A program made the translations under genes and the position numbers. DNA of 64,000 bases from a virus. Positions 20,295 to 29,354 of this stretch are shown piece by piece. The stretch spans positions 39,491 through 103,490 of IMG/VR virus record IMGVR_UViG_3300045988_182851, one strand, 5' to 3'. Under the pieces are notes generated by a model. It ran no database searches. It worked only from the letters and a program-made list of their open reading frames with translations, and was not told the origin of the DNA. How positions within the stretch are numbered: position 1 is the first letter of the stretch; each line of letters opens with the position of its first letter.

Positions 20295-21980
20295 TTAGCA
20301 TTTGCGTACTATTGAAGGGGCTGACATATCAGGGTTAATGAATTTCTTACATAAATGTTCAATTCCAGTTGTTGAATCAAGCCAATATAAATAATCTCCA
20401 TCAACGTCCACCAGATATTCATTAATAGAATCAAGAACATCGTTTACTTCAGAAACAGTACATATAAATCTGTATGAAGACTTATTTTTCTTTAAAGGTT
20501 TAACAGACTTAACAATAATCTGATATACAGTTTCGTCATCTGAAGATCTAAAATCATCTACTTGAATTTTTCCTGATAAACATAATTTAGCATCATTAAC
20601 AAGTAAGTCTCTAATATTCGCATAATCCTTAGAAAAACATACACCATTAATAGAACCTGTTTTATCTTCTACCTCAAAAGTTACCCATTCATATCCATTT
20701 CTATCCTTTCTTACAACAAGATTTTTAATTATACCAGATACATCGTTAACTTCTGTTGAAATATCAGAAATGGGATCTGTATAAATATTATACTCATCAA
20801 TTGGATGCCCTGTAATATAAACGCCTAACACTTCTTTTTCATCATTTAGAATCTGACCTAAATCATCTTCTACATAATCAATATCTATATTTTCAAGATC
20901 ATCTTCTAAGCTTTCTATAACTGTCTTAGCTGAATTGATACGTTTAATTATGGAATCTTTAGTTGGTATCTTTTTTGAAGTAACTTGAAAGGAAATATTT
21001 TCTTCTGAAATTCTTTCCTTAAACTCATCAAGATCAATATAATCTTCCACAAATTCAATAACTTTACTTGCGTTTTCAATAAACTTACTCTTCTCTCTGA
21101 TTTTCTTAATTGTATCCTGAATTTCTTTCATACAAATCATATCTAATGATATCATTGTTCTTGTATAACCAAGGCAATCGAAAGCACCTGCTTTAATTAA
21201 GGAACTTAATGCTTCTGCATTAATATTTGTTCGTTTGATAAAATCCTTAATATCAGAATATTCTCCATTAACATTTCTATCTTCAATAATTTTAGCTGCT
21301 TCTGCTCCAACATTCTTAATATTACTCAGACCATACAAAATGTTCCCATCTACAACATCACAATGTAAATTTGAAGCATTAATGTCCGGAGGCAATACCT
21401 TTACTCCAAAATCAAGGGCATCACTAATATCATCAGCGACTTCATCAATCTTATCAGTATAATTTATTACATTTGTAAGATAATAAGCCGGATAATAATA
21501 CTTAAGAAAAGCTGTCCAATATGATGTAACAGCATAAGCAGTAGCATGTGACTTATTAAACGCATACTTAGCAAAGTCAACCATCGCATCCCAGATTTTA
21601 TGAGCAATTTCTTCTGGTATTCCATTTGCAATACATCCTGGTACTAATGCTTCATTTTCTTTTTTAGTATCAGCATTGCCATATACAAAAGTGTGTCTTT
21701 CAGCATCAATTTCATCCTGATGTTTTTTTGACATAGCTCTACGGACTAAATCAGAACGCCCCCATGTATATCCTGCTAAATCACGAACAATCTGCATTAC
21801 CTGTTCCTGATAAACTATCTGTCCATAAGTAGTTGACAAAATTGGCTCTAATTGAGGACATAAATATTTAATCTTAGATGCATCCTTTTTACCTTCTATG
21901 AAATCAGGTATAAACTTTTCAGGACCAGGACGATATAAAGCATTCATTGCTATTAAATCTTCAATACCTGTTTTATTCAT
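20295..21980 (-). CDS. dnaE: DNA polymerase III alpha subunit, C-terminal part (fingers C-terminal half, HhH, OB fold), separately translated
   Basis: [50 protein letters not shown], HhH [23 protein letters not shown]; own RBS AAAGGAGAAATTTAAAATG and own promoter motif at 22017. Confidence 0.85.
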   Translation of the reverse strand: [561 protein letters not shown]

Positions 21981-22066
21981 TTTAAATTTCTCCTTTCAAT
22001 TCATAACTATATAATTTATGACAGAAAATTAAAAAAAGCGTCCAATTTTGGACGCTTGCATGAATA

Positions 22067-22372
22067 TTAAAAAGAATACTTGTTACATATATTTTCTTTT
22101 ATATAAGTGATCAAATTTTTAGCATAATCTATTCTGTCTTTTAATTTATCAATATCATTAATATCATATGAAACATTACCAGTAATACTAATATAAAAAT
22201 CATCTTTTATGGTTTTAATTTCAATATCATAATATGGAATCTTTGGAGTAAAAAAGAATCTTATGACTTTACCTGTTCTTAAATCTCTTCTTAATAGAAT
22301 TCTATATGTTTTATTATCGTATTCATCTATTATCCATGGACCGGATTCATATGTTCTAATAAAAGTTACCAT
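22067..22372 (-). CDS. hypothetical protein (101 aa)
   Basis: minus-strand ORF. Confidence 0.45.
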   Translation of the reverse strand: MVTFIRTYESGPWIIDEYDNKTYRILLRRDLRTGKVIRFFFTPKIPYYDIEIKTIKDDFYISITGNVSYDINDIDKLKDRIDYAKNLITYIKENICNKYSF

Positions 22373-22953
22373 TATCTTACTTCTTCCTCTCTGTTATCTT
22401 TATTAATTTCAGTATGAATTACATCTGGCATAATTTTATCTTCATCATCTTCTCCGCCTAAATCTAAATCAATATCTGATAGTTCATTTGTGTCAATATT
22501 GTTTGTTATATTACTAATATTAACACTTTTACAATTTTGAGTCATTGCCTTTATAACATCATCTATAGTTTTAGCATCTCTACCGATTCCGTCAAGATAA
22601 AAAGCAGCCGTTACCTGGGCGCAAAAATCTGCGATTATATGTCTATCAGTTGTTTCAGGGCAAAACTTAGGAACATTATAATATTCACAATCTCTATTGA
22701 TTTGGGAACACGCAGCTATTGCAGCTTCATGTTTAATTCTCCGATTTTTATCCATAGACTGAATAGCTTCTCGTAATTCTTCTCCCTCAAGTGTAGCATA
22801 TTTAATTGGAGTTGAATAGTTTTGATGATAAACAATCTGTACATATTCTCCAAATGCGGCCATATTGTAATTTAACATATCTAAATCATTCTCTCTATAT
22901 TCATTATCTGGCGAATTTATTGCATTTACTAATTCCTTAAATTCTTTAATCAT
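22372..22953 (-). CDS. hypothetical protein (193 aa), acidic C-terminus
   Basis: minus-strand ORF; stop overlaps the next start. Confidence 0.45.
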   Translation of the reverse strand: MIKEFKELVNAINSPDNEYRENDLDMLNYNMAAFGEYVQIVYHQNYSTPIKYATLEGEELREAIQSMDKNRRIKHEAAIAACSQINRDCEYYNVPKFCPETTDRHIIADFCAQVTAAFYLDGIGRDAKTIDDVIKAMTQNCKSVNISNITNNIDTNELSDIDLDLGGEDDEDKIMPDVIHTEINKDNREEEVR

Positions 22954-27630: not shown

Positions 27631-27658
27631 TAATACAAAATATTCAATTAACTATTCA

Positions 27659-28414
27659 CTATGAGCATAACTTCTTAAGGTTATTCCTCATACCGGCTGA
27701 CTCAAACTGGAAAACATTCTTAGTTCTTCCTTTTGCATATACTTCTTTGTATACCTTATCAGCTTTAGGACCCTCTAATGGAATATTCATTACATCAATT
27801 ACTTCTCCTGTATCTCTCTGAATCATTCTGAGTGTGTCAGTAATAATTGTAAGAGTTTTTAATCCAAGAAAATCCATTTTTAATAATCCATTAGCTTCGC
27901 ACTGAATCATATCCATTTCTGTAGTTTTAATTCCCTTTTTTCCATCTCTAATAGGAATATAATCAGTAACATCATTACTATCATAAATAATAACACCTGC
28001 GGCATGTTGTGCGTATGTCGTAAGCATACCTTCACAATGAGCTGCAATATTAAGAATAGAAATAGCATCTGGATTACTATTATATTCATCCTTTAAGAAA
28101 TCTAACAAAGAAATGCTGTCCTGAATATTAATGCCTAATTCATCAACCTTATTAGTATCTTTCATGCCAACAATATCTTCAAAATTAGTTGCTTTAGCAG
28201 GCACTTTCTTACGAATCTGATCTCCTAAAGATAAGAATTTCTTTTCATCATCATAAGCTTTCTTTCCATAATATCTTGCAGCATCTCTGATAGCACCTTT
28301 AGCCTGCTGTCTTGATTCTGTAATAATTCCAACAACAGCTTCACTACCATATTTAGCTCTTACATACTCAATTGTCTTTTCTCTTACTCCAAGAGCAAGA
28401 TCGCTATCGATATC
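27659..28414 (-). CDS. dnaE: DNA polymerase III alpha, exon 2 of the N-terminal gene (palm C-terminal part and fingers N-terminal part)
   Basis: begins [23 protein letters not shown] (compare DIDIDF..R.EVI.YV..KYG), ends [15 protein letters not shown] then CS and TAG TGA; the ORF-track start at 28417 is a TTG inside the intron. Confidence 0.8.
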   Translation of the reverse strand, partial: [251 protein letters not shown]

Positions 28415-29354
28415 CAAATATACCCCTACTTTCGTAGTACTTTAACACTTGTATAAGTGGGATTAGACTATATCTCAATATAATATTGTTAATATTATAT
28501 TTCAACGCACTTCCAACTGTAACCATTCTCAGTTGTACTCCTTAAAAAGGATAGTCGTTACACTTTAAAATAAATAATATTATATACGAACAATTTTTAA
28601 GTCATTCCATTTTAAATATTTATGCATTGAGGAATAACTTGCGTTATATTTTTCTTTAGCATATCGAGCTGCTGCTAATATGCTTTCAAATCTATCAATT
28701 AATATATCTCCTTTATATAATTTACAACACTTATAATTTCTTACAGGAGACATAGTTTTATAACTATCATATAAATTGTCTTTTCTAGTACACCATTCTA
28801 AATTATTCACCTTACAATTTTGTTTATTTTTGTCTTTATGATTAACTTCTGGTAGATTATAAGGATTAGGAATAAAATTCATCGCAACTAATCGATGCAA
28901 TAAATATTTTTTATTATCTAATCTTATCATCCTGTAATTCTTTTTACTATCTAAAAAAGGTTTAAGTTGTCGAATTTTCCCTTGTTTTATACTAAAAATC
29001 TTTCCATATGAAGTTATGTAATATTCGTGGTGATTTTTAATTTCTATTATTTTTTCACCTTTTTCAAGGAATGATGTAAAATTGATATAATCTATCATAA
29101 ATATACACCTCCTTATTTATATAATATTATTTATAATCTTAGCACGGTATCGCCTGCTATCCTTCAATATCTTTTATATAAAAATATTAGGACCGTAGGT
29201 TCTCTTACGAAGCTGCTTCGTCTATGGGTTAAGCTATATATCCTGTTGTGACACTTTATATAGCAGTCTTATTCAACTTCTACCGTTAGCACTTAATAAT
29301 AAAATATTAAGCACACCTCTGAGTTAGAGTCCACGCTGAACGCCCAATATATTT
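28415..29354 (-). other. group-I-like self-splicing intron (about 940 nt) interrupting dnaE between SMP and DIDSD, carrying an HNH homing endonuclease ORF
   Basis: exon 1 ends ..ATGCCT (U before the 5' splice site); the intron ends in G before GATATCGAT; joining restores the conserved ERVSMP|DIDSD; GC-richer structured segments at 29100-29350 and 28420-28580. Confidence 0.7.
28580..29098 (-). CDS. HNH homing endonuclease (HNH_3 / AP2-type, intron-encoded)
   Basis: HRLVAMNFIPNPYNLPEVNHKDKNKQNCKVNNLEWCTRKDN and an N-terminal YITSYGKIFS-type motif; RBS AAGGAGG before the ATG. Confidence 0.8.
   Translation of the reverse strand: MIDYINFTSFLEKGEKIIEIKNHHEYYITSYGKIFSIKQGKIRQLKPFLDSKKNYRMIRLDNKKYLLHRLVAMNFIPNPYNLPEVNHKDKNKQNCKVNNLEWCTRKDNLYDSYKTMSPVRNYKCCKLYKGDILIDRFESILAAARYAKEKYNASYSSMHKYLKWNDLKIVRI

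Follow-up and report, generated by a model that had tools for sequence, protein, structure and literature searches.

A DnaE-type replicase broken in its fingers domain and encoded by two separate, intein-free genes in a clade of phage-like elements

We analyzed a 64-kb stretch of phage-like DNA with a GC content of ~28% (IMG/VR record IMGVR_UViG_3300045988_182851, positions 39,491 to 103,490), hereafter the window, in which almost all genes lie on the minus strand. A homologue of DnaE, the alpha subunit of DNA polymerase III (Pol III), is spread there over three minus-strand open reading frames (ORFs): 31148..29307, 28417..27659 and 21980..20295. According to Pfam, the first one contains a PHP domain (PF02811, E = 8e-19) and positions 55-102 of the DNA_pol3_alpha profile, and the second one continues with positions 103-260 of this profile and with positions 1-59 (of 166) of DNA_pol3_finger. 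Comparison with L001, an independent IMG/VR contig that lacks the intron, indicated that these two ORFs are the two exons of a single gene, which we have called dnaE-N. Exon 1 (29355..31148, minus strand) encodes 598 aa: it covers the PHP domain and the beginning of the palm, with the GS motif R560-G561-S562, and closes at ...NPERVSMP. Exon 2 (27659..28414, minus strand; coding 28414..27662) encodes 251 aa plus the TAG stop, and contributes the catalytic D599, D601 and D779 and the thumb; the fingers begin here as well, with 65 residues that take in the FQFES loop and run to the C-terminus KKLCS. The third ORF, dnaE-C (20295..21980, minus strand), starts at an ATG at 21980 and encodes a protein with the N-terminus MNKTG. 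Its Pfam matches are positions 63-162 of DNA_pol3_finger, PF14579 (HHH_6, E = 4e-27) and PF01336 (OB, E = 3e-9), so that it provides the rest of the fingers (with the RPGP loop, the index finger R80/R81/K85/K86, Y139, F141-N142-K143 and H145), the HhH domain and the OB fold. The original prediction, made from the sequence of this stretch, gave the two polypeptides ~865 and 561 aa; the second size stands, while the N protein has 849 aa after removal of the intron. The distance from dnaE-N to dnaE-C is 5.68 kb.

As had been predicted, the N protein stops within the fingers domain, at a TAG (27661..27659) followed by TGA. Directly 3' of this gene we found an intrinsic-terminator hairpin of 13 bp with a U-run (27603..27631, minus strand; -13.9 kcal/mol, z = -5.1). 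Such a hairpin had been placed at 27599-27630, and its position is corrected here to 27631..27603. It is followed by the promoter motif TTCTGTCATA of the first spacer gene (27593..27602, minus strand), with the ribosome binding site (RBS) and ATG of that gene. Regarding dnaE-C, a second terminator hairpin (9 bp and a U-run; 22036..22057, minus strand; -13.8 kcal/mol, z = -4.7) precedes another copy of TTCTGTCATA (22017..22026, minus strand) and the RBS AAAGGAG (21990..21996, minus strand), 9 nt before the ATG; a further hairpin lies 3' of the gene (20251..20273, minus strand). The separate start, RBS and promoter motif of dnaE-C had thus been foreseen correctly, and the upstream terminator is an addition to them. 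Upstream of dnaE-N, a terminator-like hairpin (31196..31227, minus strand) ends the preceding transcription unit, and the promoter motif TTCTGTCATG (31183..31192, minus strand) is of the same class as that of dnaE-C. With its own terminators, motif copy and RBS, each of dnaE-N and dnaE-C thus forms a transcription unit by itself, and both units share one promoter class. The core motif of this class, TCTGTCAT, is found in 32 copies on the minus strand of the window versus 6 on the plus strand, and every minus-strand copy is preceded by a T-run and located ~25-40 nt ahead of an RBS and ATG (for example at 31191, 27601, 25538, 24412, 23000, 22025 and 20220).

In E. coli numbering, the break falls at L623|Q624, in the fingers domain. 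The joined N tail and C head align straight through the junction to the DnaE proteins of Taq, M. tuberculosis and E. coli, with nothing missing and 3 extra residues (Taq reads ...FQLESGGMTATVRGL---KPRRLEDIIAL...), and beyond the homology there are only 2 aa in the N tail and ~5 aa in the C head. We modeled exon 2 fused to the C part with AlphaFold2 using a 71-sequence alignment and obtained a pLDDT of 91.7 and a pTM of 0.83 (the single-sequence version gave a pLDDT of 33 only). In this model the break lies at the end of a helix (240-251) and is followed by a 5-residue loop (252-256) and another helix (257-267). The fused model matched the solved DnaE structures 7pu7 (E = 1e-42, TMq 0.63), 2hpi, 3e0d and 5fku, which cover the Pol III alpha of M. 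tuberculosis, Taq and E. coli with E values from 1e-42 to 1e-27.

The original prediction proposed to look for the same break in related phages, and we found it across a clade reaching down to 42-47% identity, with gaps between the two genes from 125 nt to ~18 kb. L001 is collinear with the window at 98.3% identity across dnaE-N, the whole 5.68-kb spacer and dnaE-C. Clustered at 90% identity, the C protein has 203 cluster members and the N protein 251, spread over hundreds of contigs. Besides, there are ~35 C-type clusters (71 to ~42% identity, 494-658 aa) with only the finger, HHH_6 and OB domains, and, beyond near-identical copies, ~20 N-type clusters (78 to 47% identity) with PHP, pol3_alpha and the start of the finger domain. 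In the N-part homologues P0121-P0143 (808-893 aa, 99 to 47% identity), the chain stops 1-4 residues past FQFES.GMR..LK.L, and the C-part homologues begin with a Met 2-85 residues ahead of the conserved fingers stretch; the tails and heads at the break differ in sequence and length between relatives. Six C-part homologues (P0016, P0017, P0018, P0022, P0026 and P0030) carry N-terminal extensions of 48-85 aa devoid of intein-like features, which may be docking segments or the result of mis-called start codons.

The distance between the two genes varies widely among these relatives. The gap measures 125 nt in L091/L092, where it contains a terminator hairpin, the TCTGTCATA motif and an RBS; 2.0 kb in L085/L086, with a flap endonuclease (FEN), a DUF3232 gene and a 107-aa ORF; 4.0 kb in L089/L090, with nine ORFs including FEN; 5.7 kb in the window and L001, with ten ORFs; and ~18.4 kb in ERZ28573836 scaffold_109 (L081 and L087 on one contig), with many genes, part of them on the other strand. 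A terminator, a motif and an RBS stand ahead of the C gene in the relatives examined and, apart from these, the break flanks are not conserved. N and C genes were found together on every sufficiently long contig, namely the window, L001, L085/86, L089/90, L091/92, L093 and ERZ28573836 scaffold_109.

One could argue that the spacer is misassembled, or that it behaves as an excisable element of the kind of skin (in sigK) whose loss restores an intact dnaE at the DNA level. Indeed, direct repeats (TTTTTCTGTCATA) flank it at 27584-27606 and 22013-22037. However, the same layout in the independently assembled L001 and in clusters on hundreds of contigs disposes of the concern about assembly that the original prediction had raised. 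As for excision, the flanking repeats are mere copies of the promoter motif found 32 times on this strand, and recombination between them would leave the stop codons, the terminator and the ATG in place. The predicted product would resemble the adjacent-gene relatives L091 and L093, where the two ORFs differ in frame, and neither a recombinase nor a homing endonuclease was found among the ten ORFs of the spacer. Hence, we consider either version of this explanation vanishingly improbable.

A rejoining at the RNA or protein level has to be weighed as well. The two DnaE halves of cyanobacteria are ligated by a split intein (Ssp/Npu; IntN of 123 or 102 aa, IntC of 36 aa) that trans-splices at Y|CFNK (PMC2664965), and a trans-splicing split intein, a split group I or group II intron or some other ligation could likewise yield a single-chain DnaE here. 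Two further observations favor this: a distant relative, P0201, has Intein_splicing and LAGLIDADG domains, and the dnaE-N of the window already hosts a group I-type intron. Nevertheless, no intein or Hint domain was detected by Pfam on either chain, and the 2-residue tail and ~5-residue head compare with 123 + 36 residues in the wild-type split DnaE intein. Only ~100 nt lie between the N stop and the next start codon and ~85 nt between the upstream stop and the C start; these flanks are short and taken up by terminator, promoter motif and RBS, and could not accommodate half of an intein or of an intron. Moreover, the lack of conservation beyond these signals, the variable tails and heads and the absence of any Rfam family at either border of the break all speak against a covalent rejoining, which we regard as very improbable. 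The cyanobacterial site (C-extein CFNK) corresponds to Y139|A140-F-N-K of the C part, 139 residues downstream of the break, so the original prediction was right to set our break upstream of it and slightly off in the distance (~135). The arrangement resembles the cyanobacterial one in the protein family, in the two distant genes and in a break within the fingers; unlike it, there are no intein residues and the break lies these 139 residues further upstream, and the product must therefore remain two chains. The claim of an intein-free split distinct from the cyanobacterial one is thus borne out, both by the different site and by the lack of intein residues. Stop-codon recoding or read-through was also evaluated and rejected: dnaE-N closes with TAG-TGA in the window and with TAA in relatives, a terminator follows each of these stops, and the halves are in different frames in the relatives with adjacent genes.

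The family also contains continuous enzymes and a second way of breaking them. The unsplit relatives P0127 (1403 aa), P0139 and P0145 (1368-1403 aa) share 47-55% identity with the N part and 49-53% with the fused N+C protein, and relatives at <=41% identity are all continuous across the break. The second break site (site B) lies roughly 35-40 residues downstream of the one in the window (site A). The site-B N parts (P0141, P0143 and the N gene of L093) end in ...YRPGP..IPE.I...., and the site-B C parts (P0033, P0034 and P0036) start with M...LLDDILG.TYGTIVYQEQ. In L093, N (7314-9911) and C (10001-11611) are separated by an 89-nt gap with a terminator, the TCTTTCATA motif and an RBS. A neighbour-joining tree built from the N region grouped P0127 and P0141 with 17 site-A N parts in a clade with 100% bootstrap, and the branch order inside the split clade received 7-38% support only. 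P0127 (L088, 10001-14212) is unsplit, yet nested in this clade; the loop at its junction (KELLH-DGKGS-IEDI) is +3 in length, like the joined N tail and C head of the window, and the protein may stem from a re-fusion or have kept a long loop from the ancestor. Its locus is plasmid-like in appearance and encodes ParA/ParB.

Searches in other databases returned little beyond continuous genes. A megablast of the locus against GenBank phages gave no match, and tblastn gave only continuous DnaE genes at <=40% identity. A scan of GTDB genomes retrieved essentially cellular DnaE of Clostridia/Lachnospiraceae at <=41%, together with two partial matches at 49-55%. The only pointer to a host is the label 'Lachnospira pectinoschiza' of an NCBI metagenome-assembled genome, to which the GTDB scan added nothing.

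To evaluate the active site, we used the residues listed within 4 A of the dGTP or the template in the cryo-EM of E. coli Pol III (bioRxiv 10.64898/2026.06.29.735100). All dGTP- and template-contact residues of the E. coli alpha subunit are conserved here, divided between the two chains. The N chain holds R560, G561, S562, R588, R594, D599, D601, K777, D779 and the FQFES template-contact loop, among which the GS motif and the Asp triad correspond to E. coli R362-G363-S364, D401, D403 and D555. The C chain contributes R17-P18-G19, R80, R81, K85, K86, Y139, F141, N142, K143 and H145, equivalent to E. coli R639-P640-G641, R709, R710, K714, K715, Y754, F756, N757, K758 and H760. We also compared the codons that differ between the window and L001, and counted 19 synonymous and 5 nonsynonymous changes in N, and 21 and 7 in C, where ~80% of random changes are expected to be nonsynonymous. 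These counts indicate that both halves are under purifying selection. With the catalytic and nucleotide-binding residues distributed in this way, neither chain should be able to act as a polymerase by itself.

According to these results, we think it probable that these elements encode a full-length family C DnaE whose gene underwent fission in a short, surface-exposed fingers loop, giving two separately expressed chains that associate non-covalently. Because neither half would polymerise alone, non-covalent assembly is the best explanation, and the conservation of the same break across the clade of related phages suggests an enzyme that most likely functions with its two chains in complex. The two cistrons would be transcribed from their own promoters of one phage-specific class (T-run and TCTGTCAT, ~30 nt before the RBS), each bracketed by intrinsic terminators, and each would have an RBS and ATG of its own for translation. 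PHP domain, palm and thumb would come from the 849-aa N chain, along with the catalytic Asp triad, the GS motif and the template-contact loop FQFES. The 561-aa C chain would supply the HhH domain, the OB fold and the rest of the fingers, namely the RPGP loop, the mobile index finger closing on the dNTP, the helix-loop-helix Y-x-F-N-K-x-H and the remaining subdomains. The chains would then associate in the manner of fragment complementation and rebuild one active site, with no RNA or protein splicing between them, through an interface that would include the N-terminal middle-finger helices packed on the C-terminal finger helices.

Several points weigh against this interpretation. The association of the chains and the activity of the complex are deduced from the composite active site, the co-conservation of the genes and the selection on them. 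The N chain depends on an intron whose splicing is likewise deduced, from sequence hallmarks and the intron-less allele. The internal beta-clamp motif (QADMF at E. coli 920-924) is not conserved at the corresponding position, where the alignment shows N-A-S-K-V in a helical insert specific to the clade, although such a motif may lie elsewhere. Regarding other replication functions, the window ORFs of >=180 aa include two UvrD-like helicases, RecA, RecJ, a DnaG-type zinc ribbon and a methylase, and among them Pfam recognised no polymerase besides DnaE; still, Pfam leaves three large ORFs of 853, 611 and 439 aa without a match, any of which could encode another polymerase, and the window represents 64 kb of an element of ~94 kb or larger.

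The divergent clamp motif and the sequence beyond the window could also be read as signs of decay or partial function, in which one or neither fragment works (N as a PHP nuclease, C as a DNA-binding protein) and replication is carried out by the host Pol III/PolC or by a phage polymerase encoded outside the window. This would agree with the name given to the C part by the NCBI pipeline, merely 'OB-fold nucleic acid binding domain-containing protein', and with the 300-700 kb contigs on which some of these genes, including members of the window cluster, are found; such contigs suggest integration into the host chromosome, that is, a prophage with host enzymes at hand. The data of the two halves argue otherwise: both pieces are full-length and keep all catalytic and dNTP-contact residues in lineages diverged to 42-47% identity, the synonymous excess is strong in both, they co-occur on every contig long enough to judge, and their genes share the same promoter class. 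We thus consider decay unlikely. In particular, the fallback offered with the original prediction, that only one part is functional, is disfavoured by the purifying selection on both, and it is unlikely given that the active-site residues are divided and both genes occur together.

Regarding the origin of the two-chain arrangement, the graded series of relatives and the distribution of the motif suggest that fission most likely began with the insertion of a terminator-promoter-RBS-ATG cassette in the loop, a state that would be kept in L091 and L093 with their gaps of 89-125 nt. Later, the gap would have taken up gene cassettes, reaching 2, 4, 5.7 or ~18 kb depending on the lineage. A bolder version, which we put forward only tentatively and hold to be rather doubtful, is that of an obligate two-chain replicase in which fission by a mobile cassette occurred at least twice, in neighbouring loops (sites A and B), and was perhaps reversed by re-fusion in P0127.

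Phage replication genes in pieces have been described before. The two polymerase pieces of the T4-related Aeromonas phage 25, gp43A and gp43B, co-purify in active form, and the split NrdA of phage Aeh1 is functional; in phages 25 and 44RR the gp43 pieces are parted by an untranslated intercistronic sequence or a seg gene, and T4 gp39/gp60 and the Aeh1 NrdA, split by mobE, are further phage genes in pieces (PMC2988022). Our case is similar to gp43A/B of phages 25 and 44RR in that a replication enzyme, contiguous in relatives, is made as two polypeptides in the absence of inteins, and the halves of L091 and L093 are, like those of the 44RR gp43, parted only by an untranslated stretch (125 and 89 nt). 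In contrast with gp43A/B, the enzyme belongs here to family C (DnaE-type) instead of family B, there is no homing endonuclease at the break, the halves are independent transcription units 2-18 kb apart, the conservation is much deeper and there is a second break site nearby. Assembly was demonstrated for gp43A/B and NrdA, whereas for our halves it would be expected by analogy.

A closer relative in terms of family is the minimal split Pol III alpha module encoded at distant loci by T4-like (group 2.2) jumbo phages (Iyer et al. 2021, PMC7824862). As in our elements, a phage homologue of Pol III alpha is found there in two proteins from distant loci that are predicted to reconstitute one enzyme. 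The jumbo-phage module is a palm/template-binding core without PHP, HhH and OB, broken between the NTP-binding and Mg-binding subdomains and accompanied by a family-B replicase; here, by contrast, the break lies in the fingers of a full-length DnaE, besides which no polymerase was recognised in the window. We also considered the fractured genes of Dassa et al. 2009 (PMC2677866), in which split-intein halves flank a free-standing homing endonuclease gene. Both cases concern replication genes of metagenomic phage-like DNA in two ORFs with genes between, and differ in that neither split-intein halves nor a homing endonuclease are found at the DnaE break. A survey of bacterial C-family polymerases reports the intein split only and treats other fragmented genes as likely errors (PMC3919608). 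The literature that we covered, which is incomplete so that an earlier description is possible, offered work on inteins, the jumbo-phage module and this survey, but no full-length DnaE that is split in the absence of an intein. The class, intein-free fission of a phage replicase, is known, and what sets this case apart is that it concerns family C, with cistrons lying far apart, a deeply conserved break, an active site shared by both chains and two alternative break sites.

The intron of dnaE-N is a 940-nt mobile element, probably of group I type (28415..29354, minus strand), that interrupts the catalytic MPDIDSD motif between P598 and D599 and encodes a homing endonuclease of 172 aa with HNH_3/NUMOD4 matches in Pfam (28580..29098, minus strand). 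L001 lacks exactly positions 29354..28415, with ...AGTATGCCT joined directly to GATATCGAT.... By inspection, we identified a P1 pairing AUGCCU|...GGGCGU with a U.G at the splice site and a 5' exon ending in U, a core with a GACUAU/AUAGUC P7 and the GAGAUAUAGUC J8/7-like stretch, and a G as the final intron base. Rfam gave no group I, group II or other meaningful match in window positions 19000-33000 (E <= 1) and no Intron_gpI match in the 940-nt intron by itself even at E <= 10, which is why the call rests on inspection and on the intron-less allele. The intron is polymorphic: alleles coding for 849 aa (intron-less) and for 613+252 aa (intron-bearing) are both common in public assemblies. Two relatives, P0028 and P0050, appear to have an intron a few codons further upstream.

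Besides the intron, exon 1 has another peculiarity, a Lys/Glu-rich insertion of ~150 aa in the PHP domain (N-part residues ~172-321, window ~30185-30635, minus strand), which is probably helical. It is missing in E. coli DnaE, whose residue 270 corresponds to N-part residue 448, and in relatives at <=37% identity. Directly upstream of dnaE-N lie two tandem paralogues of 383 and 349 aa (31260-32411 and 32544-33593, both minus strand) with no Pfam match, where the relatives L085 and L089 have a single copy.

The spacer between the two genes (22067..27554, minus strand) contains ten ORFs, in order from dnaE-N: a 78-aa ORF, a 210-aa ORF (phrog_3205), an RlaP-type nucleotidyltransferase of 329 aa, ORFs of 152, 89 and 88 aa, the 5'-3' exonuclease/FEN, a 148-aa ORF, a DUF3232 protein of 193 aa and a 101-aa ORF. 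Ten genes, the FEN and the nucleotidyltransferase among them, had indeed been predicted, but the description of all as unrelated does not apply to FEN, which is a replication function and is kept inside the spacer in two relatives. Only four of the ten (FEN, the 88-aa ORF, DUF3232 and the 101-aa ORF) have counterparts in relatives, and the spacer is therefore a variable cargo region. It has terminator/promoter cassettes at ~25574-25530, 24444-24404 and 23041-22992 (minus strand), making at least five between dnaE-N and dnaE-C. The listed FEN ORF (23490-24446, minus strand) starts with a TTG at 24446 and encloses a terminator (24444-24415) and a promoter motif (24413-24404); its true start is probably the ATG at 24370, which gives 293 aa and fits the 290-aa homologue of L089.

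Across the window, the T-run and TCTGTCAT(A/T) motif stands in front of most genes, usually preceded by a terminator hairpin, and a subset of these promoter-like motifs has an additional upstream TTTTTTATGTAAAAAA box. The motif is kept in L089 and L091, and its version in L093 is TCTTTCATA. A phage sigma-70-like gene is located at 17831..18859 (minus strand), and its product may read the T-run and TCTGTCAT motif. Regarding other neighbouring genes, two paralogues of an Rce1-like/CPBP (Abi-type) membrane protease are encoded at 19271-20182 and 38883-39749 (minus strand). An Rce1-like gene lies directly 3' of dnaE-C in the window and in L085, L089, L091, L081 and L083, even where dnaE-N is far off; the idea that the protease joins the two chains was rejected as pure speculation, there being no CAAX-like tail. 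The sole large plus-strand gene of the window is a TnpB/OrfB_IS605-like ORF (33843-35192, weak Pfam match), which coincides with a local reversal of the GC skew and is probably part of an IS insertion. In the relatives L081, L083, L093 and L088, several have a Rep3-type initiator and ParA beside dnaE-C, or an MCM-like AAA protein and PARP/PARG nearby, which suggests phage-plasmid lifestyles.

In this locus, Pol III alpha is cut naturally a short way ahead of the hinge of the index finger, at a point tested by evolution across many human-gut phages and usable for structure-function work, separating the catalytic core from finger closing, and for the engineering of split enzymes. Regarding annotation, the OB-fold label on the C half means that replication-module calls and DnaE phylogenies miss or truncate this clade. 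An essential replicase can split in the absence of inteins and stay stable with its halves up to 18 kb apart, and the graded series from unsplit to adjacent to distant halves makes gene fission by insertion of a regulatory cassette a testable process. In the two-chain enzyme, one subunit would be a static catalytic core and the other would carry the index finger together with the DNA- and clamp-binding modules. If the obligate two-chain interpretation were true, DnaE would toggle between one- and two-chain forms, and its C subunit might possibly be regulated separately or be exchangeable.

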